This document shows positions 4,430 to 63,720 of a stretch of 64,000 nt of DNA, one piece after another (within the stretch, counting starts at the first letter, position 1; every line of letters starts with the position of its first letter). A model generated the notes under the pieces. It saw only the letters and a program-made list of their open reading frames with translations. It was not told where the DNA came from and searched no databases. Source of the DNA: Minisyncoccota bacterium (lineage in GTDB: Bacteria > Patescibacteriota > Minisyncoccia > Phycocordibacterales > JACRKE01). The DNA is taken from NCBI GenBank assembly GCA_041660505.1, contig JBAZWG010000001.1, positions 115,979 to 179,978 of the forward strand, given 5' to 3'. Made by a program: the position numbers and the translations under genes.

Positions 4430-5434
4430 ATGTTAACCCCGACTAATTGGAAAGATTATGAGCTCATCGACTCCGGTGACGGAATGAAGCTGGAGCGTTG
4501 GGGCAAGTATGTTCTGGCACGGCCTGACCCACAGACTCTATGGCAGAAGGAGCGGCCGGAACTTTGGAATACTGCGGTGGGAGTTTATACGCGTAGTACC
4601 TCCGGTGGCGGCTCTTGGAGGTTTACAAAGGAACTGCCCGAGCGATGGAAGATTTCGTACAAACTAGAAGGCGAGGCCTTCTTGATGCCCAAGGCCTCGC
4701 CTTCTAGTTTGAGTTTCTGGGTGCGCCCGACAGACTTTAAACATACCGGATTATTTCCGGAACAGGCAGTGAATTGGGGCTGGCTGCGCGACACAATAGG
4801 AGCTAGGAGTTTGGAGTTAGGAGTTGGGGCAGAGAAAATTTCCGTGCTTAATCTCTTTGCCTATACGGGGGCGGCAACAGTCGCCTGTGCTTCGGCAGGT
4901 GCTAGGGTGACACACGTGGATGCTTCCAAGGGCGTCGTGACCTGGGCGCGCGAGAACTTAGAGTTAAACCAAGCCTCACCCCTAACCCCTCCCCGAAAGG
5001 GAAGGGAAACTCTCAAGAATCCCCCCTCTCCTTCGGAGAGGGGGCAAGGGGGTGAGGTGAGTGTGCGCTGGATCGTTGATGATGTCTTCAAATTCGTGGA
5101 GCGTGAGGCAAAGCGCGGTGTCAAATACGACGGCATTATTATGGACCCACCATCCTACGGTCGTGGTACCAAGGGAGAGACATGGAAGATAGAGAAAATG
5201 CTCTGGCCACTCGTCAAAGAGTGCGTCACCGTACTTTCTGATAAGCCTCTGTTCTTTTTAATTAACTCATACACATCAGGACTACCCGCAACAGTCATGA
5301 GCAACTTACTTGAGAGCGCGATGAAAGGCAAGGGTGGTAGTGTTCATTCCGAGGAGCTCGGCTTAAAAGGCTCTGCAACGGGAAGAATTTTACCGGCTGG
5401 AGTGACCGCAAGATGGCAGCAAAAGTCCTCGTAG
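4430..5434 (+). CDS. Class I SAM-dependent RNA methyltransferase (RlmI/YccW-like) carrying an in-frame ~84-bp palindromic-element insertion (4974-5057)
   Basis: LNLFAYTGAATVACASAGA...THVDAS SAM-binding motif and IIMDPPSYGRG (DPPxY) motif. The insert encodes SPLTPPRKGRETLKNPPSPSERGQGGEVS. The 3' end overlaps tRNA-Arg by about 10 nt. Confidence 0.7.
   Translation: MLTPTNWKDYELIDSGDGMKLERWGKYVLARPDPQTLWQKERPELWNTAVGVYTRSTSGGGSWRFTKELPERWKISYKLEGEAFLMPKASPSSLSFWVRPTDFKHTGLFPEQAVNWGWLRDTIGARSLELGVGAEKISVLNLFAYTGAATVACASAGARVTHVDASKGVVTWARENLELNQASPLTPPRKGRETLKNPPSPSERGQGGEVSVRWIVDDVFKFVEREAKRGVKYDGIIMDPPSYGRGTKGETWKIEKMLWPLVKECVTVLSDKPLFFLINSYTSGLPATVMSNLLESAMKGKGGSVHSEELGLKGSATGRILPAGVTARWQQKSS
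4974..5057. repeat. Palindromic element family B, copy 1 (inside the RlmI-like gene). 84 bp, a multiple of 3
   Basis: CCTCACCCC...CCCCTCCCCGAAAGGGAAGGG...CCCCCTCTCC-TTCG-GAGAGGGGG-CAAGGGGGTGAGG. The outer arms are complementary. Confidence 0.7.
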
Positions 5435-9220: not shown

Positions 9221-9230
9221 AATCGTGGGT

Positions 9231-22276: not shown

Positions 22277-22295
22277 GTATTAAGCGCTAGCCAGT

Positions 22296-22667: not shown

Positions 22668-22776
22668 ATACTAATATTAATTAATTCTAAATAATTTTCG
22701 ACTTAATAAATTTTCTTGATAAACTTTATAATGTGTATATTGTACCGTGCCTATCGCAACCTGTACAGTGGAAAGC

Positions 22777-23130
22777 TTATCGATTGGCTGGGAGTAGTGG
22801 CGCGTTTATAGTACTTTTGTCTCCTACGCCTGTCGTCGTTTGTATAAACGCCACTAATCCCCACACCGACACTAGCACGAACATCGCGATAGTACCCCAG
22901 ATCATTCTGGTTCGACCTTCTTCTTTCTTGCCTGATTCACCGGATATTAAGATGTATTCCGCTAAGCCGTAGATAAAGTAGATGAGCGCGAGGCCAACGA
23001 AGATAGGCACGAGTGCGTTCATGGCAGACTTAACAGTACCGAGGAAACCGAGCAAGTCAGCGGCGAATGCCACCATTGGTAATGTAGTAATCACCCCCAC
23101 TATCCCGATTTTTGTTTTTATATGCTTCAT
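22777..23130 (-). CDS. TrbC/VirB2-pilin-like small membrane protein, paralog 2
   Basis: Same conserved core (GLALIYFIYGLAEYILISGESGKKEEGRTRMIWGTIAMFVLVSVWGLVAF), with variable N- and C-termini. Confidence 0.5.
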   Translation of the reverse strand: MKHIKTKIGIVGVITTLPMVAFAADLLGFLGTVKSAMNALVPIFVGLALIYFIYGLAEYILISGESGKKEEGRTRMIWGTIAMFVLVSVWGLVAFIQTTTGVGDKSTINAPLLPANR

Positions 23131-23159
23131 GTTAAATAACTCATTATAATTAATTTTGA

Positions 23160-23555
23160 TTAAATCGTTGGAAGCCCCGGCGAGACCACCTGCACATTAG
23201 CATCAATGCCGACAGTCTTTTGTAAAAACGCCACCAATCCCCACACCGACACTAGCACGAACATCGCTATCGTGCCCCAGATCATACGCGTCCTGCCTTC
23301 TTCTTTCTTGCCCGACTCACCGGAGATTAATATGTATTCTGCCAGGCCGTAGATAAAATAAATCAAAGCCAGACCGACCATAATTGGGACCAACAGATTC
23401 ATTACACTTTTAACCGTTTGCAAAAAACTAAATGCGCTTCCTCCTCCGTTCCCTACCCGCCCGCCCACAGCTGCGTCTGCTTGCGCATATATCGTCGTCG
23501 GGATTAATAATAATACAGGAACAGCTAACCGCAATAAATTCTTTGTTCTATTCAC
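23160..23555 (-). CDS. TrbC/VirB2-pilin-like small membrane protein, paralog 3
   Basis: Core identical to paralog 2 at protein level and near-identical at nucleotide level. Distinct N- and C-termini. Confidence 0.5.
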   Translation of the reverse strand: MNRTKNLLRLAVPVLLLIPTTIYAQADAAVGGRVGNGGGSAFSFLQTVKSVMNLLVPIMVGLALIYFIYGLAEYILISGESGKKEEGRTRMIWGTIAMFVLVSVWGLVAFLQKTVGIDANVQVVSPGLPTI

Positions 23556-23573
23556 GATTATTTTTAATTTCTA

Positions 23574-23867
23574 TTACTTATTAAATTGAGGTGCGGGAGG
23601 AGCATTTAACGAGGAACTTTGTGTATTTCCCCAGACCGTTGCTTGCAGAAGATTCACCAGCCCCCAGACAGAAATTATCACGAACATGGCTATCGTACCC
23701 CAGACCATGCGCATTCTGCCTTCTTCTTTTTTAGATGCCTCGCCGGAGACCAGAATATATTCTGCAAGTCCATAGATAAAGTAGATGAGTGCGAGGCCAA
23801 CGCAGAGCGGGACGATTATACTGAAAATACCGCGAATGTTGTTTAAGATAGATTTTACGTCGGTCAT
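23574..23867 (-). CDS. TrbC/VirB2-pilin-like small membrane protein, paralog 4
   Basis: Core GLALIYFIYGLAEYILVSGEASKKEEGRMRMVWGTIAMFVIISVWGLV. Confidence 0.5.
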   Translation of the reverse strand: MTDVKSILNNIRGIFSIIVPLCVGLALIYFIYGLAEYILVSGEASKKEEGRMRMVWGTIAMFVIISVWGLVNLLQATVWGNTQSSSLNAPPAPQFNK

Positions 23868-23872
23868 TATTT

Positions 23873-24208
23873 TTATTTTAATTTATCGACAGTGGCCTTT
23901 AGTGCCTCGCTTATAACCTTGGCACCGAGCACGACACCGGCGCCGATGACCGTCCAGAGGAAGGCGTTATTCGCCGTCTTAATCTCCTCCGGCTTGCCCT
24001 GCGCCTTTACGAACATGAAGCCGACCCAGATGATAGCCATCACCAAGACCGGCACGCCGATATCAATAACGACTTGGAGAATATCTTTAAGCAGTGTCTG
24101 AATGTCTGGCGCACTGATAGGATTGCTAAGTGGTGCTGAAGCCGCAGTTACCAACGCGATCGGCATGAAGGCAAGAGAAATCGCGATTAATTTTTTTAGT
24201 GTTCTCAT
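23873..24208 (-). CDS. TrbC/VirB2-pilin-like small membrane protein, subfamily 2 member a
   Basis: Signal peptide, TM1, loop VKAQGKPEEIKTANNAF, then TM2 WTVIGAGVVLGAKV. Confidence 0.5.
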   Translation of the reverse strand: MRTLKKLIAISLAFMPIALVTAASAPLSNPISAPDIQTLLKDILQVVIDIGVPVLVMAIIWVGFMFVKAQGKPEEIKTANNAFLWTVIGAGVVLGAKVISEALKATVDKLK

Positions 24209-24265
24209 TATTTTAAATTCTATAATTCTTCAATTCCTTAATTCTGTTCGTGTTATATTGTACAC

Positions 24266-24688
24266 CTACTGGCCCAAAAAGTTAATCTTCGCGCCGAGTC
24301 CTTTAAGAATAGCATTGACGATAAGCCATGCGCCAAGAGCGATTATCATCCCGATAACGACGTAATAAAAAATATTATGCGCTTCTGTAATCTTAGACGG
24401 ATTCCCCTGCGCGGTTACGTACTTAAATCCCGCGAACATTATGGCAATAACCGCAACAGGAGCGAGAATCTTTAATATCAAAAAATTCCAAATGTTGCTG
24501 ATGAGAGTATACAACTGCTGGAAGTCGCATTCGTTTGGATCACCGCCTTTACCGCATGGCACAAGATTTGTGGCGGCACCCGGCTCAGGCTGTACGCCTC
24601 CTAATCCTTCTGCGAAGACAGTTGCGCTTGCACCGAACATAAGCAACAGGAAAGATATGACTATAAACTTTTTACTGTGATGTAGCAT
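24266..24688 (-). CDS. TrbC/VirB2-pilin-like small membrane protein, subfamily 2 member b
   Basis: Paralog of 23873..24208 (AIMFAGFKYVTAQGNPSKITEAHNIFYYVVIGMIIALGAWLIV). Longer N-terminus with a Cys pair. Confidence 0.5.
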   Translation of the reverse strand: MLHHSKKFIVISFLLLMFGASATVFAEGLGGVQPEPGAATNLVPCGKGGDPNECDFQQLYTLISNIWNFLILKILAPVAVIAIMFAGFKYVTAQGNPSKITEAHNIFYYVVIGMIIALGAWLIVNAILKGLGAKINFLGQ

Positions 24689-34311: not shown

Positions 34312-34917
34312 TTACAGATCTTTTTTGATTCTATACTTCCAGTCATTAAGGTCAATAAAATTGACTTTTCCTCGTTTTTCTTTAATCAACTCTCGTAACT
34401 TTGACGAAAATCTTGAGGTAAAATACCTTGGACCAATTCTGCTCTTCCTAGCACTAGAAGCAATGTAGATTTTAACCCCTTTTTCCACTAAGTCTCGCAT
34501 TAAGTATTCAAAGTCTCCGTCACCTGTAAAAATAAGAAATTCTGTGTGTGGACTTGCGTACTTTTCTGCATCAACAGTCAGTTCAACATCGCAATTTGAT
34601 TTCCATTTTACACCCCCTTCTATGGTATGATTAATGCCAGTTGAACAATTAGGGCATTTTATATTGATGACAGAGTCTTTGTTTTTATATATAAAAAATG
34701 GTTTTGCGCGCATGGCATAACCAAGCTTTGCTAGCTCTTCATATTCCTGGATGAGTGAATCATTTCCTTGTTGTATACCGGAGTAAAAGAAAATCTTTTC
34801 GCACTGCCATTTGTCGGCAAGATAGGCATGCATCTTTCTCCAGTCGATAACAAAGCCAAGCAACTTGTTCGCTGTGGTTTCTGTGTTTTGAACGTCGATA
34901 AAGGCGACGCGAGACAT
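34312..34917 (-). CDS. NYN/LabA-like (PIN-fold) domain protein
   Basis: VAFIDVQN...DVELTVDA...FTGDGDFEYLMRDLVEKGVKIYIASS plus a CPNC zinc-ribbon-like insert. Start at the internal Met. Confidence 0.6.
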   Translation of the reverse strand: MSRVAFIDVQNTETTANKLLGFVIDWRKMHAYLADKWQCEKIFFYSGIQQGNDSLIQEYEELAKLGYAMRAKPFFIYKNKDSVINIKCPNCSTGINHTIEGGVKWKSNCDVELTVDAEKYASPHTEFLIFTGDGDFEYLMRDLVEKGVKIYIASSARKSRIGPRYFTSRFSSKLRELIKEKRGKVNFIDLNDWKYRIKKDL

Positions 34918-35117
34918 GCTTTTGCATTGTACCAAATCAAGGCCTACAATAAGGCCTTTTTCGTGTTCATACCCAATACTTGACAAAACTGTCAATAGTG
35001 TGCTACTGTTATAGGTAGCTTTTTGACATTCTTACCAACCTCAAACCGCACGGGGTCTTCGGGCGCGCGACAAACGCTTGCGCGCAAATAAGCTGCCATC
35101 TTTGGCAGAAAGGAGAC

Positions 35118-35685: not shown

Positions 35686-35720
35686 GTCCCTACCGACGAG
35701 GTTCAACCTCGGCGGTAAAA

Positions 35721-42716: not shown

Positions 42717-42737
42717 ATCACGCCGTATTCCAAAAAA

Positions 42738-42768
42738 ACAGTCCGATTAACTTCGGGCTGTTTTTTTG
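42738..42768 (+). terminator. Intrinsic terminator after cspA
   Basis: AACAGTCCG...CGGGCTGTT stem followed by TTTTTTT. Confidence 0.55.
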
Positions 42769-42817
42769 TCGCACAAGGCAGTCTTCTGCGAGCCCAAGAA
42801 GACTGCCTTGTGCGACT
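42769..42817. repeat. 19-bp perfect inverted repeat (GTCGCACAAGGCAGTCTTC-N11-GAAGACTGCCTTGTGCGAC) at the left border of the GC-rich island
   Basis: Read directly from the sequence. No other copy in the window. Confidence 0.6.
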
Positions 42818-42903
42818 TTACAAAAAGCCGGTTCGCGTATACCATAGACATCTGTACTGCATGAGTCGTGTGGACTTGTGCTTGAAAGGGAAAAGGAGGA
42901 GTC

Positions 42904-43263
42904 TTGCCCACTTCACTCGGAGTCGAGATTGAACTGTTGCCGCCTCATTTGGCGGCGGATGAATTGCTCGTGTTTCTCCAGCACTGGTGGATGGACCGGC
43001 ACGATGAGCCCGGCCCACTTCTGCGTGATGGAGAGATCCGAGCCGAGGGTCGCAAGGCCCTGCGCCAGGTCATCGAGCACGGCGTGCCCGATGACCGCTG
43101 GAAGGTGAAGGATGTGCTCCAGCGCGCAGGGGTCACCGGCTTTTCGCCGGACGGCAACTGGCTCGAGAACGACTGGGTCGTTCTCGAAACCTTCGTCTCG
43201 ACCAACTGGCCCGCCGAGCCGAGCCACGAAGGCCAGCCCGAGTCGGCAAATCTCACCTTCTAG
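42904..43263 (+). CDS. Hypothetical protein (GC-rich island). TTG start after AAGGAGGA
   Basis: Strong GC3 bias. A competing antisense ORF (42913..43356) is also open, so the strand is uncertain. Confidence 0.3.
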   Translation: MPTSLGVEIELLPPHLAADELLVFLQHWWMDRHDEPGPLLRDGEIRAEGRKALRQVIEHGVPDDRWKVKDVLQRAGVTGFSPDGNWLENDWVVLETFVSTNWPAEPSHEGQPESANLTF

Positions 43264-43546
43264 CCGATTCCTCTCCAGCGCCACACAACTCTCACTAAGC
43301 CGCTCAAGATCCCAGGATCGCGAGCGGCTTCGAACTTTCTGCCAAACCCTTTCCAAATTTTTTTCTAAATAAATCAGCGACCGCTTATTTATTTAGAATT
43401 GTGTTTTTCATTTTTTTAAAATGTGGGAACGTAAAAGGCCGGCGTCTCAAAAAGACAACGCCGGCCCTGGTTACACACGTATTAGTGAATCTGCTGTGAT
43501 CAAACGCTCACGACCGGCGCATTCTTCTTCTTAGCGGGCAAGGGTT

Positions 43547-45013
43547 TTAGTTCTTACCCTTCTCCGACGAGTTGAACCAGCCCGGGAAGTACTGCTGGCG
43601 GAGCTTGTCGATGAGGTTGTCTGCCTTATCCATTCTGTCGTCTCCCATGTTTCGCAGAAAGCTCTTCAAAGCTTTGCGATAACGAGCGACCGAGAACCTC
43701 CAGTCCTTGATTGCTGACTTGAGGCTTTCTTTCTCGACGGCGTTGAGCATGTCAGACATGGATAGGACCACGATGGCCTCTTCCTTGTCGAGGAGGTCTT
43801 CGAGAGACCACCTCGTGAGATCGAGCCGATCCATGTAGGACCAACCCTCGAACCCACCGTACCCGAACAACACCGGGTAGTTCTGACGATACAGCTGATC
43901 ATATCCTTGTCGGATTGATGCTCCGATGAGGACGATGACGGCCTCGCCAGCCGTCATCTTGTTTGCCACGGACTCGACTTTAGAGGCGTCGAGCTTCTTC
44001 TTGAGTCCCGCGAGGAACGGAAACTTCTTCAAGAGCTTGGTCTCCTGCTCTGGCGTGAGTGGCCTCGGTTGGGCCTTCAGCTTCCTCGCCGGAGCCTTCA
44101 ACTTCTCGATGGCTGCGGGTACCCTTGCTGGCGCTTGCAAGGCAAGCATGGCGGCCAGAACATCCTGCTCGCCGTCGATGACGACGTCGTGCTCGGTCCC
44201 AAAATCCTGTCCACGATCCCAACCCTCCGCGAACTGGCAAAGCTGGTAGATGCCAGATCGTGGCCCGCCTCCCATCTGCAGAGCGGCGACCAGTTTCTTG
44301 GCGATCTCCGTGTCCAAAGCCCCATTGACGTCAGGGGCACTGTCGAGGACCTCGTCGAGTATCTTCTCGGCCTCGAGAACCCGCTCGAAGTAGTCGAGAG
44401 GCCCAGTGAGAACATGCCGCTTGAATACCGAAGTGGTAGCAATCTGGGCGCCCATTCGCGCCCATGTATCACTCATGTTGACGAGCCTCGTGGCGCGGTC
44501 AATCCGCTCCTGAAGTGGCGCAGGTGTCCGGAACGGGTCAACTGCCGTCATACCAGAAACTTCCCACTGTACTACGTAGGCCGTGTCTGGTGAAAGGCCA
44601 TCGATAGTGACGCTCCCGTAGCCGTTGTTGTTTGAGGATACAAACATGTTCGTGTAGTCCTGGCCGTTCAAACGGACCGTGACATTAGCGAGCTGTTCGA
44701 TTGCTGGCATTTCCTCCGGCTGAGCGGGGAAAACTACTCGCACCCACCCAACCGCGGAGTGGTCTGACATCACGTTGACTCCGTGTGTGTCGATCATTCC
44801 GGACGACACAGGAACGGCTGTCGTTGTGGGAGTCGGCGGCAGGTCGCGTGACGCTGCCGTGGCCGTGTTGGCCGCGCGGGCCTTCACGACGTCCTTGGCT
44901 GTCGCCGGCGTGGGGTCGAACCCCATGCCATTGACGCCTGCTCCGCACCCGAACGAACCGAAAACGAGTCCTGCGACCAGGAAGGTCGCGATGATGATCC
45001 GAATGGCGTGCAT
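43547..45013 (-). CDS. Secreted/lipoprotein, hypothetical (GC-rich island)
   Basis: Signal peptide with FGCGAG lipobox-like motif. 488 aa. Thr/Pro-rich linker, then a helical domain. Confidence 0.5.
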   Translation of the reverse strand: MHAIRIIIATFLVAGLVFGSFGCGAGVNGMGFDPTPATAKDVVKARAANTATAASRDLPPTPTTTAVPVSSGMIDTHGVNVMSDHSAVGWVRVVFPAQPEEMPAIEQLANVTVRLNGQDYTNMFVSSNNNGYGSVTIDGLSPDTAYVVQWEVSGMTAVDPFRTPAPLQERIDRATRLVNMSDTWARMGAQIATTSVFKRHVLTGPLDYFERVLEAEKILDEVLDSAPDVNGALDTEIAKKLVAALQMGGGPRSGIYQLCQFAEGWDRGQDFGTEHDVVIDGEQDVLAAMLALQAPARVPAAIEKLKAPARKLKAQPRPLTPEQETKLLKKFPFLAGLKKKLDASKVESVANKMTAGEAVIVLIGASIRQGYDQLYRQNYPVLFGYGGFEGWSYMDRLDLTRWSLEDLLDKEEAIVVLSMSDMLNAVEKESLKSAIKDWRFSVARYRKALKSFLRNMGDDRMDKADNLIDKLRQQYFPGWFNSSEKGKN

Positions 45014-45213
45014 TTGCCACTCTCCTTTCTTTGCCCTGCTGTGTGATACAGACGGGGCGGTAATGGTCCTTTGAGACCGTTGCGCTTAGGCAAAGCAATG
45101 CTTAACCCAAGAATAACGGCCCCAAATAACCTTACTTTGCTTGTTTATTTTGATTCACTAAACGTATGTCAAAGATCGAAATAACCCGTACATAGTAGCA
45201 CACCTATTGACAT

Positions 45214-45290
45214 TCTGTCAAGGAGTTAAATATTATTTAAATAGGCCATTGATTGACATTATGTCAAATATAGTGTAGTATTTAAAGGAT
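45214..45290. promoter_or_regulatory. Divergent promoter region with two TTGACA-N3-TGTCAA palindromic operator-like sites
   Basis: TATTGACATTCTGTCAAGGAG at ~45213-45230. TTGACATTATGTCAA at ~45251-45265, followed 17 nt later by TAGTAT (-10-like). Confidence 0.4.
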
Positions 45291-45346
45291 TTCTTCGTTG
45301 ACAACGCCCATACCGGGCATCATAGTTTTATCCACGGAGGTGGATT

Positions 45347-46957
45347 ATGGTTCTCTTTATCGTAGCGATGATTCTGGTTTGCGGTCTCGGCAACATCGGC
45401 TGTGACCCTGCGGACTTCCCGCAGGCGCAGTCTGGCATCCAGCCCGCTTCGACCAGCTCGTGCTGGCCGTCGCAGGTTATGACAGCCACGGTGGCCGAGG
45501 TCGTTGCCCACAACAATCCTGCGACGGTCAGCCAGACCATCGCAGGGAGAATCGGGCAGGACTTCGGTGGTATCGTCGTCGACGCGACCGCAGCACGACG
45601 AGACATTGAGGTGTGGTCGTTGGTTCAAGTTATTGAGACGACCAACGGCGCCATGCCGACGATGCTTACAAACCTGCAGATGTTCAAGGGCACAGCGCCG
45701 TTGAACACAGGATCGGCGATTGCGAACCCTAGCACCTCCGCAGTGCTTGTGGTCTTCGACCAGCCGGTCTATGTCCCCCATGGGACGGTCGCGACATTCG
45801 CGACCAAGGCCAACGTTTCGGCGGCGGCACCTGTCGGTGCGAAGTTCTCACTTCGCAATGCCGGTGTTGTCGCATTCGAGGCCGGTGGTGGCCCACTCGT
45901 TCCAGTTGCGATTGACCGAACCACTGCGGGAAATACGGTCACAGTCGTTCGCTCTGGCCTTGCGCTAGGTACCGACACGTCCTCGCCTAGCTACCAACAA
46001 GTGGCTGGCGGGACGGTGAACGTCCTTGCGACGGTCGTGAAGTTCCGGGCAACAAGCGAGAACGTGAGGCTTCAGCGCCTCTATCTCGCTCTGGTTTCCG
46101 GGAGCACGTCCAGTATCGTGCAGGGTACAGTCTGGTTGGGCTCCGCGCAAGTTGGGTCGGTAACGTGGACGGGCGTGAGCACGCGTGCAACTTGCACGCT
46201 TGACTCACCCGTGGACATCCCCGACGGTCAGGATGTGCCGATGATTGTCCGAGTTGACGTGGCACCAATCGGCGTCAACCAACCCGGCCGGTCCGGCGAG
46301 CTCATCAGGCTCACCGTAATCGGCGCCGACGCCATTGGCCTCGAGTCCGGCGAGTCGGTCACAGCAACTGGCTCGGCAGAATCGATGGGCTTTCGCACGT
46401 ACAAGTCCGTGTCCACCATCTCGCTCGACTCGCTCCCCACGCAGGGAGCAACGGACGGGCGGTTGATGCGGTTCAAGGTCGCGGCCAACCCGCTTGGCAG
46501 CATCGGACTTGCGAAATTGAGCTTCCGGGTCAATACGACCGGTTGCTCGACTTCGGGTTTTAGTCTGACAATGTATGGGGATCCTGGTTACGCTATTACG
46601 GTGGGTAGCGGTGTGTTCAAGGCCACCGGTGCAACGCCAACGAGTTCCGGCCTCGTCGAGATTCTCGGCGAGCCAACCATCAATGCCGCCGCCGGAACTC
46701 AAATGTTCTTCGAGCTCCGAGCAAATGTGGCACCGAGTGGAGTGGATTACTCGGTGGTCACGACCTTGCTCGGAGAGACTGCGCCCCTGCCGCCAGCAGG
46801 GATGTCTTCGGCTCCGGAGGTCGACGGCCACGGCGGGCGCTTCATCTGGACGCCGAACAGCCTCTTCCAGTCCGGTCTCGTAGACCTCGACTGGACGAAC
46901 GGGTTCGGGGTACTGGGTCTGCCCTCGAGCGGGCTCGCCCAAGTCCGTACTAACTAA
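45347..46957 (+). CDS. Secreted surface/adhesin-like protein (lipoprotein signal, Ala/Thr/Gly/Val-rich beta-rich), GC-rich island
   Basis: Signal peptide with VCGLGNIGC. 536 aa, low complexity, beta-strand-like. No enzymatic motif. Confidence 0.5.
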   Translation: MVLFIVAMILVCGLGNIGCDPADFPQAQSGIQPASTSSCWPSQVMTATVAEVVAHNNPATVSQTIAGRIGQDFGGIVVDATAARRDIEVWSLVQVIETTNGAMPTMLTNLQMFKGTAPLNTGSAIANPSTSAVLVVFDQPVYVPHGTVATFATKANVSAAAPVGAKFSLRNAGVVAFEAGGGPLVPVAIDRTTAGNTVTVVRSGLALGTDTSSPSYQQVAGGTVNVLATVVKFRATSENVRLQRLYLALVSGSTSSIVQGTVWLGSAQVGSVTWTGVSTRATCTLDSPVDIPDGQDVPMIVRVDVAPIGVNQPGRSGELIRLTVIGADAIGLESGESVTATGSAESMGFRTYKSVSTISLDSLPTQGATDGRLMRFKVAANPLGSIGLAKLSFRVNTTGCSTSGFSLTMYGDPGYAITVGSGVFKATGATPTSSGLVEILGEPTINAAAGTQMFFELRANVAPSGVDYSVVTTLLGETAPLPPAGMSSAPEVDGHGGRFIWTPNSLFQSGLVDLDWTNGFGVLGLPSSGLAQVRTN

Positions 46958-46987
46958 ACTGTGCGAGGTTGAACCTCGCACAGTTTG
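46957..46987. terminator. Hairpin (AAACTGTGCGAGGTTGAACCTCGCACAGTTT) at the right border of the island. Contains the 13-bp palindrome
   Basis: 12-bp stem around a self-complementary core. Confidence 0.45.
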
Positions 46988-47051
46988 ATTCAGCTCTTTC
47001 TCGCAACCCGGCTTCCATGTGGAAGTCCGGGTTGCTTTGTTTTTATACTGC

Positions 47052-47848: not shown

Positions 47849-49174
47849 TTATTTACGTCTCCAAGAGGGCTTAAAGCCGCCATGCCCGCCACCACGTCCG
47901 CCATGTCCGCCAAATTTTTGTGATTCATAAGGGCGTTCTTTGATAGTGCTCTGGCGTGCCGGCGGGAGATCTTGCGGCTTGGATTTCTCCGGCAGGCGCT
48001 TCTTGGTCAAACGTTCGATGGTCTGTATGTCACGGCGCTCATGATGCTCGGCGAATGAGATTGCCTTGCCCTCTTTACCCGCGCGGCCGGTACGGCCGAT
48101 GCGATGGACGTAATCCTCGGCCGAGTCCGGTAGGTCATAATTAATAACAAGGCCGATGTCGGAGACATCGATACCGCGCGCAGCAATGTCTGTCGCCACC
48201 AAGACGCGATATTTACCTTTCTTAAATCCGAGCAAGGCCTCTGTGCGCTGTGAGAGAGATTTATTGGAATGAATATCCGTCGCCGTATGACCCATGTCTT
48301 GGATATGTTTGGCGAGTCTCTTGGCACCGTGCTTGGTGCGTGAGAAAACGAGTATCGTGCCCGGGTTGTCGGCAATGAGCTTCTCGAGCAAGCGCGATTT
48401 CTCTTCTTTCGTAACGAAATAAATTTCTTCAGAAATTTTTGCAACAGTCGTGCCCGATGTGGCAACCTGTACCGTTTGCGGTGCGTGCAGATAGGCCTTC
48501 GCCATTTGAGCAATCTTGTCCGGCATCGTGGCCGAGAAAAGAAGCGTCTGATGTACCTTCGGGATCATCGCGATGACGGTGCGAATCTGCGGCTCGAATC
48601 CCATATCAAGCATTCTGTCGGCTTCATCGAGAATTAATATCGAGACTTGGGATAGGTCAATCGTCTTCTGGCGAATGTGGTCATTGATACGGCCGGGGGT
48701 AGCGACTATCACGTGCGGATTCTCGCGGAGCTTGCGCATCTGGGCACCCATGTTGGCACCGCCGACGAGCATGGCGGTTTTAATTCCTAAATCTTTTCCG
48801 ATAGCAACAAGCTTCTCGTCCACCTGGGCGGCGAGCTCGCGCGTGGGCAAGAGCACTAGGCCAGTGCCCTTGGTCAAGGCTAGGCGCTGGAGCATCGGCA
48901 GACCGAAGGCGAGCGTTTTGCCTGTGCCGGTCTGGGCGATACCGATGATGTCCTTGCCAGTTAACACAACCGGTATGGCCTGCGCCTGGATAGGTGTCGG
49001 GTTGGTAATATTGAGCTTAGCTAGAGTATTGGTGAATACCGGAGCGAGGCCGAGGTCGGTGAAGGTTACTGAACCAACCGTAGAAGGTTCAACCTTTTGG
49101 ACCTGCCCGACAGTGCCAGTCATTGGCAGGCGGGTGCCTAAGGTTGAACCTTGGGAAGTGGTGTTTTGTGGCAC
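47849..49174 (-). CDS. DEAD-box ATP-dependent RNA helicase with Gly/Arg-rich C-terminal tail
   Basis: Q-motif FTDLGL...PTPIQ, AQTGTGKT, DEAD, SAT, HRIGRTGRAG. The real start may be the Met at ~49123. Confidence 0.9.
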   Translation of the reverse strand: MPQNTTSQGSTLGTRLPMTGTVGQVQKVEPSTVGSVTFTDLGLAPVFTNTLAKLNITNPTPIQAQAIPVVLTGKDIIGIAQTGTGKTLAFGLPMLQRLALTKGTGLVLLPTRELAAQVDEKLVAIGKDLGIKTAMLVGGANMGAQMRKLRENPHVIVATPGRINDHIRQKTIDLSQVSILILDEADRMLDMGFEPQIRTVIAMIPKVHQTLLFSATMPDKIAQMAKAYLHAPQTVQVATSGTTVAKISEEIYFVTKEEKSRLLEKLIADNPGTILVFSRTKHGAKRLAKHIQDMGHTATDIHSNKSLSQRTEALLGFKKGKYRVLVATDIAARGIDVSDIGLVINYDLPDSAEDYVHRIGRTGRAGKEGKAISFAEHHERRDIQTIERLTKKRLPEKSKPQDLPPARQSTIKERPYESQKFGGHGGRGGGHGGFKPSWRRK

Positions 49175-49242: not shown

Positions 49243-51480
49243 CTATTCTTTACACTTGTTGCAGATGTCGCGGACGTTCTCCGGTACATAATCGCAAGAT
49301 GGTGCCATTTTGAAGCCTGCGCAGACTTGGTCGTTCGGTACGAAGCCTGCCGGAGGTGTGCCTCCTGATGATTCGCTACTCTGGGAAGATGATTCTCCTT
49401 GTCCAGAGATGCCCATACTCTCCGGCACCCCCTCTGGAATATATCCCTTCGGGATGCCGCCTTTCGGAATACCGGCCGGGATACTCCCCGCTTCAGGGAT
49501 TCCTGCCGGGCGGAAGTTCTTCATACAAGCGGCGATGTCGCCTTGGACGTCCTCTGGGCCTTTGACCTCGCCTTTCTGTGCGCGCTCGGCGATATTACTT
49601 AAGCGATCTTTAAGACATGCCTGAATTTCCGGTGGGGCTTGCTTCAACTGCTCATCCATCATCTTCTGCATTACTGCGCCGATATTACCGACACAACTCT
49701 GGATTGCTGCGCCTGCCTCGGGGCCGATTTCTACATCTTCGCCCGCCTCGATTTTGGCCACCTTATCTTTACCCAATTTATGTTCGATACAAGTGCGAAT
49801 TTCCTCCGGCATCTGCTTTAATCCATCGCGCATTTTCTTTAAGCCTTCTGTCTTCATTTTGCCGAAGCAGTTCTTAATCTTATCGCCCGCGTCCGGTGAT
49901 GGCGGAGCATCGCCCTTAAGCATCCCTTCGAGCCCACCCTCACCCATCGCTTGCTCGACACATTGCTTGGTCGCCGAGTCTGCTTGATCCATGGCGCCCT
50001 TGAGCTTACTCATCATCTGCGGGAGATACTTGGCAAAGCAGGCTTTGATCTTGCCGCCAGCCTCCGGCCCCGGCATATATGTACCGCCTTCTACACTTGA
50101 GATGATGTTCGGGTCAACTTCTGACTTCAAACAATCCACCACTTCTTGCGGTGCTTGTTGTAAGCCGGCGCGGAGCTGGCTCATGCCGTCCTTAATCTCC
50201 TTCAGTTTATCTGCGGGAATGAGGTCATGCTCTTTAGCAAATTCGAAGCAGGCGGTCTGATTCTTTGCGTCATTACAATAGGCATCACATGACGCCTTCG
50301 ACGTACAGCCACCGGGGCCCTTGCCCCCTGTCTTGCGCACGAGATCAGCCTCTTCTTTACTGATGAAGCCGGCCTTCTCGCCGAAAGCCACGCATTCCAT
50401 TACATTGTTATTATCGGCGCAGTATTTCTCGCACTGGTCTTTCGTCGTGCATTTGCCGGGCGACTGGCCGCTCTCGATAAGCGGGAGAACTTTGCGCGCC
50501 ATCTCCGACTCTTCTTTACTTACAAAGCCGGCCTTCTCTGCGAAGTCGAGACATTCACCGCCGTGGCCTGATGCAGTGCAATAAGTGTTGCAAGACTTCT
50601 GATCAGTACAGCCACCGGGCAATTTCGCACCGGCCTTCAAAGCTTGGGCGACTTGCTTGCCCTGCTTGAGCACGTCGGCACTAATGAAGTTATGCTTCTC
50701 GGCGAAGGTGAGGCACGAATCGATATTTTTTATATCAGAACAATATGTCGTACACGATGCTTGGTCTTTGCACGAGCCGGGGCCGTCGCCCTTCAATACA
50801 TCGGCGAACTCTTTCGCCTTGGCGGCGTCCTCTTTGGAAATTAAACCTGTTTTAGCGCCGAAGTCAGCACAAGCTCCGTAATTCTCTTGTTTATCGCAAT
50901 AAGTTTTACATTCCTTGTCACTCGCGCAGTTGCCGAGAGCGACTATGGGATAAGTGCTGATGACTTTCACGACGATAGGTTTGCCTACCGTGTTGCCGTT
51001 GTTCACGAGCTTAAGATCCATCGTTGCCGCACTGCCGACTATCGATGCGATGTTCCATTTGTAGATGTAAGCCTGACCCGGGTCTGTCGTAACTTGATAA
51101 CCGCCACCAGCACTTGAGTTGTTCGCTGATAGGTCTGCGCTGTAAAACAGCATCCAAGCTTTGCCGGAGAGATATGGGAAGTTTCTGCCGTCTTTATAAG
51201 TGAAGCTTGCACCTTTGTTCATGAGCGCGGACGTTACCACTTTACCGTTCACGTAAACCTCTAATGGATAGTTGGCGCCAGCAGGCTTATTGTAGTCGAT
51301 ACGGCCGAGCAAGCTCAAGACGCTCGTTGCCGGCACTGTCCCGGACCATGAGTCATTGGCCGCAATGCGGATCTCGTCAGGGATGGTAACCGCCTGTGCG
51401 GTTTGCACCGTTCCTAACATAATGAGCAACATTGGCACGATGCCGGTAAATCGCAAAAGTTTTTTTATTGTCATATTCAT
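49243..51480 (-). CDS. Secreted cysteine-rich tandem-repeat protein (hypothetical)
   Basis: Signal peptide. About 6 copies of a ~44-aa unit (C..K..C..YC......C..F[AG]EKAGFISKEE...), then a second repeat type, a GIP-rich tract and C-terminal CxxC. Confidence 0.55.
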   Translation of the reverse strand: MNMTIKKLLRFTGIVPMLLIMLGTVQTAQAVTIPDEIRIAANDSWSGTVPATSVLSLLGRIDYNKPAGANYPLEVYVNGKVVTSALMNKGASFTYKDGRNFPYLSGKAWMLFYSADLSANNSSAGGGYQVTTDPGQAYIYKWNIASIVGSAATMDLKLVNNGNTVGKPIVVKVISTYPIVALGNCASDKECKTYCDKQENYGACADFGAKTGLISKEDAAKAKEFADVLKGDGPGSCKDQASCTTYCSDIKNIDSCLTFAEKHNFISADVLKQGKQVAQALKAGAKLPGGCTDQKSCNTYCTASGHGGECLDFAEKAGFVSKEESEMARKVLPLIESGQSPGKCTTKDQCEKYCADNNNVMECVAFGEKAGFISKEEADLVRKTGGKGPGGCTSKASCDAYCNDAKNQTACFEFAKEHDLIPADKLKEIKDGMSQLRAGLQQAPQEVVDCLKSEVDPNIISSVEGGTYMPGPEAGGKIKACFAKYLPQMMSKLKGAMDQADSATKQCVEQAMGEGGLEGMLKGDAPPSPDAGDKIKNCFGKMKTEGLKKMRDGLKQMPEEIRTCIEHKLGKDKVAKIEAGEDVEIGPEAGAAIQSCVGNIGAVMQKMMDEQLKQAPPEIQACLKDRLSNIAERAQKGEVKGPEDVQGDIAACMKNFRPAGIPEAGSIPAGIPKGGIPKGYIPEGVPESMGISGQGESSSQSSESSGGTPPAGFVPNDQVCAGFKMAPSCDYVPENVRDICNKCKE

Positions 51481-53108: not shown

Positions 53109-53462
53109 TTATAAATACTCGTCGTTCAGATCAAGAAAGTTTGTGACTTTTTCTGAAATGTCTTTATAATATTTCGGTTCAAGCGTGCCTAGAGTTTTAC
53201 TGATTCTTCGACGATCGATCATGCGCAGTTGAGAAATTTCTAGGCGAGAATCGCTTTTCAAACCGTTTTCTTTGCTTGCAATAATCCAGACGGCAGAGGG
53301 AACATCTTTGGGTGTGTTGGTAAGGGGCACGACAATAACGGTCTCTATTTTAGACTGGTTAACCTTATTGTTCTGGAGTATCAATGCCGGACGGACACCG
53401 CGCTTTTCTGCGCCGCGTGCGGGGTCGAAGTTAACAACAACAATATCGTATTTCTTTACCAT
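53109..53462 (-). CDS. Type II toxin, MazF/PemK family endoribonuclease
   Basis: KKYDIVVVNFDPARGAEKRGVRPALIL...TVIVVPLTN matches the PemK/MazF fold signature. Confidence 0.75.
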   Translation of the reverse strand: MVKKYDIVVVNFDPARGAEKRGVRPALILQNNKVNQSKIETVIVVPLTNTPKDVPSAVWIIASKENGLKSDSRLEISQLRMIDRRRISKTLGTLEPKYYKDISEKVTNFLDLNDEYL

Positions 53463-53698
53463 TCCAAGTTCACGGGATTATTTGCGATCGAAAACCACAT
53501 ATCCATTTCTTCTTTGTCCTCCGCCATGCGGTTATATGACTCCGTAATCGCGCGACCTTTCGCCTCGCGTTCTAGTTTCTTTATAGAATCTTCGATGACT
53601 TCACGACGGGTAACTTCGCGTTCTTTAGCCATCTTATCGACGAACATAAGCAACTGCGAATTGATATTAGTAGTGATACGTGTTTGATGCTTTATCAT
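53456..53698 (-). CDS. Putative antitoxin (RHH/CopG-like) partner of MazF
   Basis: Small acidic protein overlapping the toxin start by 7 nt. The start codon is uncertain. Confidence 0.45.
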   Translation of the reverse strand: MIKHQTRITTNINSQLLMFVDKMAKEREVTRREVIEDSIKKLEREAKGRAITESYNRMAEDKEEMDMWFSIANNPVNLEW

Positions 53699-53738
53699 AT
53701 GCATCATGATATGCCTGTCAGTATGTATTGTCAAGCTA

Positions 53739-55712: not shown

Positions 55713-56297
55713 TCATAGCAACCTAAGCGCAATAGACACGAACACTGGGATGAACAGGTTATCATCCTGCCACCACGGTTCGTGCTTGCCGATGATCTCG
55801 CCGATTGCGGCAACGAAGCCGATGACGGTAGAGAGCGGCAAGACGCATCCGCTTGCCGATGCAGCGAATGCCCCGGCAATCCAGGCACCTAAGAAGCCCT
55901 CGCATGTCTTCTTGCCGGCACCCGGGAACGGCGTGAGGCCGTAGTGGATACCAACGAGCCTGGCCGCCGGATCAACGCACGCGACGCAGATAACACAGAG
56001 CCAGAATGTCCCAGCCGGGGCGATCCACCAGGCCAGCACAAGCCCGGTGACCATCGCCGGTGCGGCCGTTGGCCTACCATCCCTCTCGTCATCGCGGATA
56101 ATCCCGTTCATGACGGCGAGGAAAGCGTTGCGTACATACTCCACACGCGTGCGTAAAAACTCGACTCCCACGACAATCATCCAGAGCAGATACATACCGT
56201 ACTCCGGTGAGACGCGCAATGCCAGTCCGACAGCGAACGGTGTCGATAAGACATGCCAGATTGCCCGCCACCCCTCATAATTCCTGTTCAAGAGCAA
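55713..56297 (-). CDS. CTP-transferase-1 family membrane protein (CdsA / dolichol-kinase-like), GC-rich
   Basis: Polytopic protein with a GKKTCEGFLGAWIAG signature near the C-terminus. Elevated GC relative to neighbours. Confidence 0.5.
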   Translation of the reverse strand: MLLNRNYEGWRAIWHVLSTPFAVGLALRVSPEYGMYLLWMIVVGVEFLRTRVEYVRNAFLAVMNGIIRDDERDGRPTAAPAMVTGLVLAWWIAPAGTFWLCVICVACVDPAARLVGIHYGLTPFPGAGKKTCEGFLGAWIAGAFAASASGCVLPLSTVIGFVAAIGEIIGKHEPWWQDDNLFIPVFVSIALRLL

Positions 56298-61569: not shown

Positions 61570-63114
61570 ATGAAGTTTAAAAAGAGTTCACTAATAATTG
61601 CGGGAGTATTTTCTTTAGCAGTTGGTGGTATGGGTGTAAGTGTTGTGCTTGCTGCAACGACCATTAATCTTGGTAGCGCTAATACATACGCGGTGCTTGG
61701 TGGTTCGGCTATTACCAATACGGGCGCCAGTGTTATTAACGGCGACCTGGGTTTGAGCCCGGGTTCTGCGGTCACAGGCATCCCACCGGCGACGTTGAAC
61801 GGCACGCAACATATAGGTGACGCAGGAGCAGTCCAAGCAGAATCAGATCTGACGACGGCGTACAATGCCGCAGCAGGACAATCAACGCTTTCCACTATCT
61901 CCACAGAGCTCGGTGGCTCGACAAAAACCGCCGGTGTCTATGATTCTGCGGCGGGGACCTTTGGTATCACCGGCACGTTGACCCTCGATGCGCAGGGTGA
62001 CCCCAATGCTGTCTTTATATTCAAAACAGCTTCAACGCTAATAACTGCCGGTGCCAGCAACGTGGTGCTCGCTAACGGCGCCCAGGCCTGTAATGTCTTT
62101 TGGCAAGTGGGCAGTTCAGCGACGCTCGGGACAAACTCGACATTCAAAGGCAATATCCTTGCCTTGCAATCTGCGACGTTGACGACCGGGGCGAATGTCG
62201 AAGGTCGCGTGCTCGCACGGAACGGAGCCGTCACTCTGGACTCGAACATGATAACCAAAGCAACTTGTGCGGTTGTGCCACCTGCGGTAGTAATACCACC
62301 ACCTGCCTCTACCCCTGTAGTTGTTGCTCCATTGATGCCGCCGCTTATCAGCGTTAAAAAAGTCCCCTCGCTGGTTGCAACATTACCCGCTGGTGGCGGG
62401 ACTGTTGCCTTCGATTATGCAGTCTCGAATGTCGGCACAGTCGCCATGAGCAACATCACGATCAACGACGATAAGTGTTCCCCTGTAACGTTCATTTCGG
62501 GCGATACGAACGGAGATTTAAAATTGGACGTAACAGAAACATGGAACTATCGTTGTACCCAGAACATCACGCAGACCACGACCAACAGCGTCGTCGTGAC
62601 CGGCCAAGCGAACGGCTTCACCGCCACCGACAGTGCGAATGCGATCGTCAACGTTGGCGTTGCAACACAGGCGCCTTTAATCCATCTTATAAAAACGCCT
62701 AATCTATTTGTACTGCCAAGGAGTGGGCCGGTGACATACACCTATACGGTAACTAACCCCGGCACAGTTCCTCTAAATAATGTAAGTGTGGTTGATGATA
62801 AGTGTAGCCCGGTCTCCGGCTATACTGGTGACGTTAATAACGACAATTTGCTTGATCTGTCGGAAACCTGGGCATATTCCTGCCAGATGAATTTAACGTC
62901 CAACACAGTAAACACCGCGACGGCAGAAGGTAGCGCCAGTGGTCTCACCGCGATCGATTACGCACTTGCAACAGTCCTCGTCACTCCCCCTACGTTGCCA
63001 AAATCAGGATTTGGACCAGACTATACCACCGCTTCAGAAAGCTTATTCATTACGGCCGGAGTTTTTGCGACAATACTAACCCTCTTTGCAATTCGAAAGA
63101 AGCAAGTTATTTGA
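61570..63114 (+). CDS. DUF3494 (ice-binding-like fold) surface protein with two DUF11/CARDB-like repeats and a C-terminal LPKSG sorting signal
   Basis: Signal peptide. [38 protein letters not shown] (DUF3494 hallmark). Two ~70-aa DDKCSPV...GD.N.D..LD..ETW.Y.C repeats. LPKSG plus hydrophobic stretch plus RKKQ tail. Confidence 0.6.
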   Translation: [514 protein letters not shown]

Positions 63115-63117
63115 TTC

Positions 63118-63720
63118 ATGCTACGATGGAAGCTTTTTAGAGCGGGGATGCTGGGAATCGCCGGTGTCTTTATAACTATTCTCTGCGTAGATATAAGTCT
63201 AATCGTACAAACCACCGACGCTAAGATGGTTGCGTCGGTCAGTGTTCTGCCTGCAATACCCGCAGAACAGCCAGATACCGGGATTCCAGTTCGTCTACAG
63301 ATTCCTGCGATACATATTGATGCGCCTATTATAAGTGTAGGATTAAGTTCCGATGGAACAATGGAGATGCCGAAGGGTCCCACTGATGCAGCATGGTTTG
63401 ATATTGGTCCGCGTCCGGGAGAGAAAGGCAGCGCAGTAATCTCGGGGCATTATGGGTGGAAGGACGGCGTAGCCGCCTTATTTGACAATTTACACATGCT
63501 TAAGAAGGGGGATGTCATATACGTCGAAAACGAACAAGGGGTGACTAACAATTTTATCGTCCGCGAACTCCGAACCTACGGCGAAAATGATGATTCTTCA
63601 GACGTGTTCGGTTCAAATGATACAAAGGCTCATCTGAATCTCATAACCTGCGAAGGAACATGGAACAAGGCGAAGAAAAGTTATTCCGACCGTCTAATCG
63701 TCTTTACCGACAAAAAATAG
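63118..63720 (+). CDS. Sortase (class E/F-like transpeptidase)
   Basis: N-terminal TM. His region (ISGHYGWK), TLITC catalytic Cys motif (NLITCEG) and conserved Arg. Immediately downstream of the LPKSG substrate. Confidence 0.7.
   Translation: MLRWKLFRAGMLGIAGVFITILCVDISLIVQTTDAKMVASVSVLPAIPAEQPDTGIPVRLQIPAIHIDAPIISVGLSSDGTMEMPKGPTDAAWFDIGPRPGEKGSAVISGHYGWKDGVAALFDNLHMLKKGDVIYVENEQGVTNNFIVRELRTYGENDDSSDVFGSNDTKAHLNLITCEGTWNKAKKSYSDRLIVFTDKK

Follow-up and report, generated by a model that had tools for sequence, protein, structure and literature searches.

Genes for variable or horizontally exchanged surface proteins are usually AT-rich relative to the genome that carries them. The locus described here deviates in the opposite direction. 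It occupies a GC-rich segment (positions 42769-46987) of a 64-kb stretch of DNA, referred to below as the window, which is part of a 719-kb contig from a member of Candidatus Paceibacterota, a group of the candidate phyla radiation (CPR). The segment encodes a small protein (p119) and two putative lipoproteins (p488 and p536), the latter two arranged divergently around a common control region. With moderate confidence, we interpret it as a variable, fast-evolving, GC-rich surface-lipoprotein locus that is syntenic at the level of the neighbourhood within a clade of Paceibacteria, and not as a recent import.

The closest described counterpart of p536 is a surface protein of Paceibacteria of approximately 1160 amino acids that contains a PG_binding_1 domain and has its C-terminal module in common with p536. 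Unlike this core protein, p536 lacks the PG_binding_1 domain together with the N-terminal ~650 residues, carries a signal peptide instead, is encoded at a different locus and shows an excess of GC at third codon positions (GC3). Like the MSCRAMM and antigen I/II adhesins and strain-variable S-layer or surface-antigen cassettes, p536 is predicted to be secreted, all-beta and composed of several domains, with Foldseek matches to PrgB, antigen I/II, Cna, SdrD and ClfB, and like other variable surface loci it diverges much faster than its flanks at a fixed neighbourhood. Unlike these adhesins it lacks an LPXTG sorting signal; it is not homologous to them in sequence, and the structural match is weak, with a template modelling (TM) score of ~0.15 for a model with a predicted local distance difference test (pLDDT) value of 49. 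Genomic islands have been described in Patescibacteria, where transfers are reported to occur mostly between Patescibacteria (Gios et al. 2025, PMC12455944). The segment resembles these islands in being a compositionally atypical cluster in an ultra-small genome and differs from them in that mobility genes are absent and the central gene has the same composition in relatives. The control region is reminiscent of the operator-overlapping promoters of dimeric helix-turn-helix (HTH) repressors, which act by promoter occlusion, as it contains an inverted repeat with half-sites of 5-6 bp that covers the -35 box and the spacer, and in the window the element is duplicated within a divergent control region. 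In contrast to repressor operators, the left half-site is identical to the -35 consensus, so that recognition by the polymerase and by a regulator are indistinguishable by sequence, and no cognate regulator is known.

Composition and genes of the segment

The GC content of the segment is 0.572 compared to a mean of 0.488 (standard deviation 0.014, maximum 0.522) over 514 non-overlapping windows of the same size, and at the 4.2-kb scale it forms the GC peak of the 64-kb window, which as a whole has a GC content of 0.494. Its three genes encode p119 (42904-43263, + strand, 119 aa, GC 0.628, GC3 0.775), p488 (43547-45013, - strand, 488 aa, GC 0.581, GC3 0.718) and p536 (45347-46957, + strand, 536 aa, GC 0.612, GC3 0.708), all of which are annotated by NCBI as hypothetical (WC764_00935, called there as 104 aa, WC764_00940 and WC764_00945, respectively) and preceded by a strong Shine-Dalgarno sequence. 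The remaining 45 genes of the window have a GC content of 0.497 ± 0.041 and a GC3 of 0.557 ± 0.081; native genes that come near the segment in GC3 are hisS (0.714) and the open reading frame (ORF) at 55713..56297 (0.708). Searches of Pfam, NCBIfam, PHROGs and PDB sequences with p119, p488 and p536 returned no significant match, and a permissive Rfam scan of 42.3-47.4 kb yielded sub-threshold noise only.

An earlier note on this DNA had drawn attention to GC and GC3 above those of the surroundings, to open antisense frames, and to genes for a small protein, a 488-aa lipoprotein on the - strand and a 536-aa surface protein on the + strand that is rich in Ala, Thr and Gly. All of this was borne out: the GC3 of the segment genes is 0.71-0.78, antisense ORFs of great length are present, the three ORFs exist as proposed, and p536 is rich in Val, Gly, Ala, Thr and Ser. 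The proposal that the segment encodes lipoproteins or surface proteins is supported as likely.

A sharp change in composition of this kind could also arise from a GC-rich fragment joined to the contig during assembly or binning. However, an independent Logan assembly of SRR18595301 (L060) is identical to the window over 15.7 kb that span both segment junctions (100% identity), and the gene is found in this neighbourhood in relatives as well. The segment is not an assembly chimera because L060 matches across both junctions, and we regard this explanation as next to impossible.

The p536 protein and its family

In a scan of 185,579 species, each represented by one genome, relatives of p536 were detected at 56 loci, and 56/56 belong to Patescibacteria (tblastn E-values 6e-78 to 2e-11), with carriers among Paceibacterota, Zambryski-, Adler- and Kaiserbacteria and others. 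A HMMER profile search of 1.8 billion cluster representatives with p536 retrieved 1148 clusters, of which 365 reach E <= 1e-30; the few named ones are CPR or unclassified 'bacterium'. Neither collection yielded a non-CPR homologue, and the top profile hits include no non-CPR names.

The core family that emerges from these searches consists of proteins of ~1160 aa with an N-terminal PG_binding_1 domain, whose genes are kept in the order recA, small protein, ftsK, HTH protein, surface protein, TPR protein, rplJ and rplL, a context that in the 56 genomes is unrelated to that of the window. Residues ~65-536 of p536 align to the C-terminal part of the core protein (~470-480 residues) at 27-39% identity and have the motifs DGRLMRFKV and DWTNGFGVxGLP and a C-terminal ...R-T-N end in common with it. 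In p536 this module sits behind a lipoprotein signal peptide. Without a PG_binding_1 domain (no Pfam hit) and outside the recA-ftsK...rplJ-rplL context, p536 is, as far as its sequence indicates, a short paralogue of the C-terminal part of the core family and not a core orthologue.

It groups with P0002, P0006 and P0009, encoded on the contigs L002, L142 and L143, respectively; L142 derives from SRR22388013 and L143 from ERR15113708. These four proteins of 532-542 aa are mutual best hits with 37-41% identity to each other and 30-37% identity to core members. P0006 and P0009 were missed by a word-indexed search, which found 2 homologues for p536, and came to light later in the full HMMER search. 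P0002, P0006 and P0009 have a canonical L-P-G-C lipobox by sequence inspection, p536 has ...G-N-I-G-C in the corresponding position, and the boxes align on the Cys. Neither lgt nor lspA is encoded within the 64 kb of the 719-kb contig that make up the window. The p536 model, built with a 3-sequence alignment, is all-beta at low confidence, and its Foldseek matches are strings of tandem Ig-like domains, among them integrin legs, PrgB, antigen I/II and MSCRAMM adhesins. p536 is therefore described here as a putative protein of the cell surface, likely to be lipid-anchored and all-beta.

The earlier note had raised host-to-symbiont transfer from a high-GC host as a possibility. The island would in that case have come recently from the non-CPR cell, perhaps an actinobacterium, on which the CPR organism lives as an episymbiont. 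Apart from the elevated GC and GC3, only a general argument from lifestyle speaks for such an origin. p536 has homologues in the CPR and nowhere else in the two collections, p488 and p119 match nothing in the word-indexed and family-library searches, orthologues of the same composition are found in two related genomes, and conservation of the promoter element is seen inside the CPR. Transfer from a non-CPR host is thus very improbable.

Some further features of the loci involved may be recorded. The core block is seen across L004-L059 (for example L004 6680-12336), where the HTH protein is ~250 aa long and DeoR-like in its C-terminal part. The core surface gene is preceded by a long intergenic region of 450-790 bp that contains hairpins common to related genomes (GAAACCGAGAGGTTTC in L003 and L045, TCCGCCTWAGGCGGA in L054 and L055). 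On L002, a nucleotidyltransferase/HEPN toxin-antitoxin pair (11758-12478) lies directly downstream of P0002, and GC varies from gene to gene between 0.435 and 0.640, which suggests a variable region there too.

The same neighbourhood in close relatives

The contigs that carry P0006 and P0009 come from close relatives of the organism to which the window belongs. Proteins of L142 are highly similar to those of the window (FtsZ 91%, FtsA 86%, RRM 88%, p200 77% and CspA 98% identity, the DEAD helicase being beyond the contig), as are those of L143 (FtsZ 86%, FtsA 79%, RRM 87%, p200 73% and DEAD helicase 80%, with CspA absent). The gene order in the window is ybeY, ftsA, ftsZ, RRM, tRNA-Val, p200, cspA, p119, p488, p536, SPFH, DEAD. 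In L142 it is ybeY, ftsA, ftsZ, RRM, a 231-aa gene, p200, cspA, a 421-aa gene, a 35-aa gene, P0006 and HhH-GPD, and in L143 ftsA, ftsZ, ..., RRM, ..., p200, YgjP, P0009, a 421-aa gene, ..., a 464-aa lipoprotein gene, HhH-GPD, patatin and DEAD. In both relatives the subfamily gene is therefore found between p200 and the DEAD side of an ftsZ-RRM-p200-(cspA)...DEAD neighbourhood. The p536-type gene is the most diverged of the shared genes, with 40-41% identity versus 73-98% for the others; the sole exception in the lower range is a Band_7 protein (46%), which is encoded elsewhere on L143 and may be a paralogue. At the DNA level the flanking genes are 71-79% identical to those of the relatives, and the homology between the window and L142 stops at the cspA stop codon (42712). 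The place of p119 and p488 is taken in L142 by the 421-aa gene, and the interval is therefore a plastic zone.

These observations bear on the central claim of the earlier note, that the segment is a recently acquired horizontal module. As for the marks of a genomic island, a composition differing from that of the genome was found. P0006 and P0009 show that the p536-type gene is present at the site in relatives, with the same GC excess, and no closest homologue was found in a high-GC non-CPR donor lineage. For p536, the closest matches are without exception CPR proteins from this genomic context, the very outcome that the earlier note had named as refuting its proposal. No integrase or transposase gene was found in or beside the segment and no convincing direct repeats were found at its edges; a tRNA-Val gene lies 1 kb away with p200 and cspA in between, so that neither junction is tRNA-adjacent. 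A recent acquisition is not borne out by these results.

Lateral acquisition from higher-GC Patescibacteria, either of the whole segment, of p119 and p488 only, or by repeated replacement of lipoprotein-gene alleles out of a common pool at a plastic site downstream of ftsZ, is possible though on balance somewhat unlikely. It would agree with the break of L142 homology exactly at the end of cspA, with the gene content between p200 and DEAD, which varies among the three relatives, and with the equidistance of the subfamily members. In some Paceibacteria genomes, of GC 0.53-0.58, the related core gene reaches a GC3 of 0.70-0.76, and most of the gene transfers detected in Patescibacteria are reported to come from other Patescibacteria (PMC12455944). 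Against it, there is no donor-like close homologue, the best match being at ~41% identity; both close relatives already carry the gene with the same neighbourhood and composition; and the mobility genes, direct repeats and tRNA junction mentioned above are lacking. Exchange within Patescibacteria has nevertheless to be kept in view as an alternative, above all for p119 and p488.

Two further searches add little to the comparison. An FtsZ-anchored metagenome scan returned 80 loci (FtsZ <=76% identity) which keep the hisS-ftsA-ftsZ order and share nothing downstream of ftsZ, so that the scan has no power on the question of insertion. Exact-protein look-ups of CspA and SPFH returned the same organism only.

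Codon usage of the subfamily genes

The GC excess of p536 is shared by the other subfamily genes: P0006 has a GC of 0.622 and GC3 of 0.779 on a contig of GC 0.494, P0009 a GC of 0.609 and GC3 of 0.703 in a locus of GC 0.501, and P0002 a GC of 0.640 and GC3 of 0.779 in a locus of GC 0.549, while the neighbours of P0006 and P0009 have a GC3 of about 0.5. The excess is accompanied by a bias towards G-ending Gln, Lys, Glu, Leu and Arg codons, on a background GC of 0.49 or 0.55 alike. It can be expressed as the share of G at purine-ending two-fold codons, G/(G+A), which is 0.80-0.84 in p119, p488 and p536 compared to 0.514 ± 0.106 in the other 45 window genes, and 0.84 in P0006, 0.70 in P0009 and 0.86 in P0002. 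The neighbours of the homologues in L142 and L143 mostly have values of 0.35-0.58, with a few short ORFs reaching up to 0.81. One further window gene has a value of 0.83, on only 24 codons; it encodes a multi-pass membrane protein (55713-56297, - strand, GC 0.588, GC3 0.708) with no Pfam hit.

A comparison of 61 family genes with their neighbours, from the 56 genome loci together with L002 and L003, shows that GC at first and second codon positions (GC1+2) is raised in the core family (+0.074) and GC3 is not (+0.004 ± 0.074). The GC1+2 excess of the family is an amino-acid effect, and it follows that only the subfamily of short lipoproteins has an excess in GC3. With flanks that are 71-79% identical at the DNA level and lipoproteins that are only ~40% identical as proteins, synonymous sites would have been wholly turned over since these genomes diverged, by which time a foreign signature should have decayed. 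Taken together, this suggests that the composition is a maintained property of the subfamily genes and not the mark of a recent import. One possible source of the GC excess is GC-biased gene conversion associated with recombination at a diversifying locus; another would be repeated allele replacement from a pool common to Patescibacteria.

The codon data bear on lateral acquisition in both directions. The GC3 and codon deviation is common to three adjacent genes, with the codon usage of p488 being the most deviant in the window; yet the gene exceeds its background even in L002, the carrier with the highest GC.

They also bear on the explanation that p119, p488 and p536 are ordinary native genes whose GC results from their amino acids and from expression-linked codons, the palindromes of the control region being coincident -35 hexamers without a regulator. 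The GC1+2 excess of the family does reflect proteins rich in Ala, Gly, Thr, Val and Pro, and hisS, ftsZ and the genes of S1 and gyrA likewise have high GC3. In these native genes, however, it is C-ending codons that are favoured, and G/(G+A) is 0.49-0.63, well below the 0.80-0.84 of the segment. In addition, cspA, which is presumably highly expressed, has an average GC3, and core-family genes elsewhere show no GC3 excess. For these reasons, and for those given for the palindromes below, native genes of the ordinary kind are a quite unlikely explanation.

The divergent control region

p488 and p536 are separated by an AT-rich spacer of 333 bp (45014-45346) with two palindromes that are 46 bp apart. 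Palindrome 2 (TTGACATTATGTCAA, 45253-45267) lies within the predicted p536 promoter TTGACA-17-TAGTAT (45253..45281, + strand). Palindrome 1 (TTGACATTCTGTCAA, 45207-45221) consists of back-to-back -35 hexamers on both strands and is an additional copy (P1) of the conserved element, upstream of the one at the p536 promoter. Its minus-strand half forms the -35 box that faces p488, the predicted promoter of which (45192..45221, - strand) is composed of a -35 TTGACA (45221->45216), an 18-nt spacer and an extended -10 TGcTACTAT (45197->45192). No exact match other than these two palindromes occurs in the 64 kb; with 12 specified bases, we estimate that chance would give ~0.004-0.008. Promoter-like sites between 42.3 and 47.4 kb number 11 versus 2.2 expected, most of them in the region of the divergent spacer. 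The earlier note had described a spacer of about 330 bp with two TTGACA-N3-TGTCAA palindromes, the second of them on a -35/-10-like promoter; both are present and the second does overlap the p536 promoter, with the coordinates given for them shifted by ~7 and 2 nt.

The element recurs at the other subfamily genes. In the promoter alignment the window copy at p536 (P2) reads ATTGACATTATGTCAAATATAGTGTAGTAT, that of L142 ATTGACTTTATGTCTATTTTAATGTATTAT, that of L143 ATTGACATAGTGTCTATTATAATGTATTAT and that of L002 GTTGACT-ATAGTCAACTATTATTGTACTAT. The consensus TTGAC-N4/5-GTC(A/T)A overlaps the -35 box at 4/4 subfamily promoters and occurs nowhere else on those contigs (64, 10, 21.6 and 21 kb), compared to a background of 14 matches in 1.74 Mb of other CPR loci. 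The spacer of sigma-70 promoters is normally unconstrained. The right half-site GTC(A/T)A is conserved even though it falls into this spacer, and the palindrome is therefore a conserved cis-element. In the simplest reading, a dimeric regulator would bind there, over the -35 box. The divergent promoters, predicted to be strong and of the sigma-70 type, would drive p488 and p536 from the 333-bp spacer, with transcription expected to start at about 45185 on the - strand and at about 45243 and 45288 on the + strand, and a dimeric regulator encoded elsewhere most likely binds the element, which would couple the expression of both lipoproteins.

If p119, p488 and p536 were ordinary native genes, the palindromes would have to be accounted for by the promoters themselves. 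Palindrome 1 yields a good promoter on each strand, and the promoters, Shine-Dalgarno sequences and terminators of the locus are strong, which speaks for this explanation. But GTC(A/T)A is kept at the other three subfamily promoters, where no good divergent promoter is evident (two upstream sequences were read). For lateral acquisition, on the other hand, it can be said that even in L002 the gene is accompanied by this promoter. The palindrome is absent upstream of the 464-aa lipoprotein gene of L143, where the promoter is strong. The earlier note had assigned control of the segment to a dimeric repressor that the segment does not itself encode. The cis-element is real and no repressor is encoded in the segment, but no HTH regulator was found among the window ORFs.

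p488 and p119

p488 has a signal peptide that ends in ...GSFGC and is followed by a Pro/Thr-rich linker, and it is on this basis a putative lipoprotein. A single-sequence model of too low a confidence to be relied on (pLDDT 36) predicts a beta domain at about residues 88-152, which is FN3-like by eye only, followed by a helical region of ~300 aa. p119 is a small acidic protein (pI 4.7) without a signal peptide that has a TTG start with AAGGAGG upstream. A promoter-like site TTTACA-17-TACCAT (42817..42845, + strand) precedes p119, and two hairpins (43297-43330 and 43363-43398) follow it. A further GC-rich hairpin (GGCCGGCG...CGCCGGCC, 43437..43466, - strand), next to which UUUUAC is found on the - strand, is the likely terminator of p488.

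No homologues of p488 or p119 were found by the word-indexed search, a search that also missed P0006 and P0009 for p536, and no counterparts were detected in L142 or L143. Both genes have the same codon signature as p536, and they are either genome-specific or diverged beyond recognition. In this respect the 464-aa lipoprotein of L143 is of interest, which is encoded 3 kb from P0009 and is likewise GC-rich (GC 0.60, GC3 0.75, G/(G+A) 0.86). It has a lipobox ...NIGCEP, close to the ...NIGCDP of p536, a Pro/Thr-rich linker and, by eye, an FN3-like domain followed by a long helical region, a build that resembles p488. There is no significant similarity between p488 and this protein, nor between p488 and p536; p488 and the 464-aa lipoprotein are alike in architecture only. 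p488 may be a hyper-diverged counterpart of the 464-aa lipoprotein or a separate acquisition.

Hairpins and terminators at the segment edges

The left edge of the segment follows the intrinsic terminator of cspA (42731..42768), the stem of which is flanked by A7 and T7 runs and can act both ways. Directly after it lies a perfect inverted repeat with 20-bp arms (42768-42787 and 42797-42816) and a 9-nt loop, which has no U-tract, is unique in the window and is absent from the relatives. Between cspA and p119 it may act as a transcriptional insulator or as a back-up terminator. The right hairpin (46956-46970 and 46972-46986, 15-nt arms, 14-bp stem, 3-nt loop) starts at the p536 stop codon and is followed by the intrinsic terminator of p536 (47003..47045, + strand), a hairpin at 47003-47035 with a T-run behind it. 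P0006 and P0009 are followed by an equivalent hairpin and T-run terminator only and lack the right perfect hairpin. The earlier note had placed both structures to within 1 nt and found the left one to be perfect, but gave the left repeat 19-bp arms and the right hairpin a 12-bp stem.

These hairpins are not mechanistic island boundaries or ends of a mobile element because they are unrelated to each other in sequence and come without a recombinase, direct repeats or a tRNA junction. Other intergenic sites of the window carry long perfect hairpins too, and comparison of the edge hairpins, the spacer and the intergenic DNA with all other loci retrieved gave no match. Ends of the integron attC, IS200/IS605 or repetitive extragenic palindrome (REP) type were considered and rejected, as the edge hairpins are unrelated and the only Y1 transposase-like ORF is 23 kb away. 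A target of a diversity-generating retroelement was likewise rejected; no repeat of the segment occurs elsewhere in the 64 kb and no reverse-transcriptase domain was found.

The core of the right hairpin, GAGGTTGAACCTC, belongs to a palindrome family with copies dispersed across the window. If one mismatch is permitted, the pattern GAGGTTSRACCTY has 14 matches in the window versus 0.5 expected, and the stricter pattern RAGGTTSAACCTY is absent from L142 and L143. Sites of the palindrome GAGGTT(C/G)(A/G)ACCT(C/T) are located at 4245-4280, 9230-9273, 35698-35710, 46965-46977, 49084-49096 and 49140-49152, often as paired copies that make perfect hairpins of 13-17 bp; one is 10 nt upstream of the clpB start, and the DEAD-box helicase gene has two in its 5' end or leader. 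The family could be a genome-specific repeat resembling REPs or miniature inverted-repeat transposable elements, or a regulator site. Two other hairpins of the window may be mentioned. A perfect hairpin with a 21-bp stem (4660-4711) is situated in the ORF 4430..5434, which is odd in its GC by codon position and may not be a real gene, and an 18-bp stem is found inside argS (hairpin sites 15727-15774 and 17318-17346), the arm of which, GGGTAAGGTTTCGCCTT, recurs in an intergenic hairpin with a 12-bp stem 1.5 kb away.

Assessment of the proposed origin

Several observations weigh against a syntenic, fast-evolving lipoprotein locus as proposed here. Each of the three genomes has its own set of genes directly beside the subfamily gene, so that orthology holds at the level of the neighbourhood only, and a cassette of promoter, gene and terminator could have been inserted independently into a plastic zone. 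P0002 is found in another context, beside the S10 operon. Whatever the distance between the organisms, the subfamily proteins, four in number, are about equally far apart (~40%), which also fits replacement from an external pool of alleles. The orphan status of p488 and p119 is provisional, and these two could be of laterally acquired origin. The codon usage of the native genes hisS and ftsZ deviates too, though without the G-ending bias. With respect to the control element, the spacing of the half-sites differs by 1 nt in L002, no candidate regulator is present among the window ORFs, and the palindromes could be a matter of promoter architecture, that is back-to-back -35 boxes, and not an operator. 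The lipobox of p536 (G-N-I-G-C) is non-canonical, and the structure models of p488 and p536 are both of low confidence.

A fast-evolving surface-lipoprotein locus kept in place within the clade is still the interpretation that we prefer. A more far-reaching version of it, which strikes us as doubtful, is that the locus has its own compositional equilibrium (GC3 ~0.7-0.8) in at least three related species and in the carrier of L002, as a recombination-driven hotspot of GC-biased gene conversion or allele exchange under diversifying selection, and that it is a candidate determinant of host recognition in these episymbionts under a dedicated regulator acting through TTGAC-N4/5-GTC(A/T)A.

Other features of the window

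Judged by composition, recent acquisition is more plausible for two low-GC genes than for the GC-rich segment: an IS200-like Y1 transposase gene (19409-20089, - strand, GC 0.386) and the gene of a NYN-domain protein (34312-34995, - strand, GC 0.377). A PemK/MazF-like toxin gene (53109-53734, - strand) with an overlapping upstream ORF for a 92-aa putative antitoxin is situated in a patch of low GC (0.39-0.44; 52.7-53.7 kb) next to tRNA-Ser and tRNA-Glu.

The window also encodes other membrane, secreted and surface proteins. Tandem small membrane paralogues are encoded at 22019-24688 (- strand), six of which match T4SS_pilin / TrbC-VirB2 (E 1e-9 to 1e-12), and a seventh ORF of the pilin-like array (22019-22276) is similar by sequence likeness; the array fills a stretch without any ORF of >=150 aa. 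A 745-aa secreted protein (49243-51480, - strand) without a Pfam hit is composed of repeated Cys-rich units of ~50 aa (C..C..YC........C..F....G) and has a 322-aa relative at 14321-15289 on L002, the contig of P0002. Finally, an ice-binding-like / DUF7507 surface protein (61570-63720, + strand) is directly followed by a sortase, and the two look like a sortase-substrate pair.

Implications

When a reduced genome contains a GC-rich patch of orphan-like genes, recent horizontal gene transfer is not necessarily the cause. The decisive evidence in this case is the synteny and matching composition in relatives, which was revealed only by an exhaustive profile search. The locus points to a fast-evolving pair of lipoproteins with a conserved control element, derived from a Paceibacteria-wide family of peptidoglycan-binding surface proteins, with more than 1100 clusters, for which there is no Pfam model. 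To our knowledge, the molecular basis of host-cell attachment in the CPR is largely unknown outside Saccharibacteria, and surface proteins such as these are natural candidates for it.

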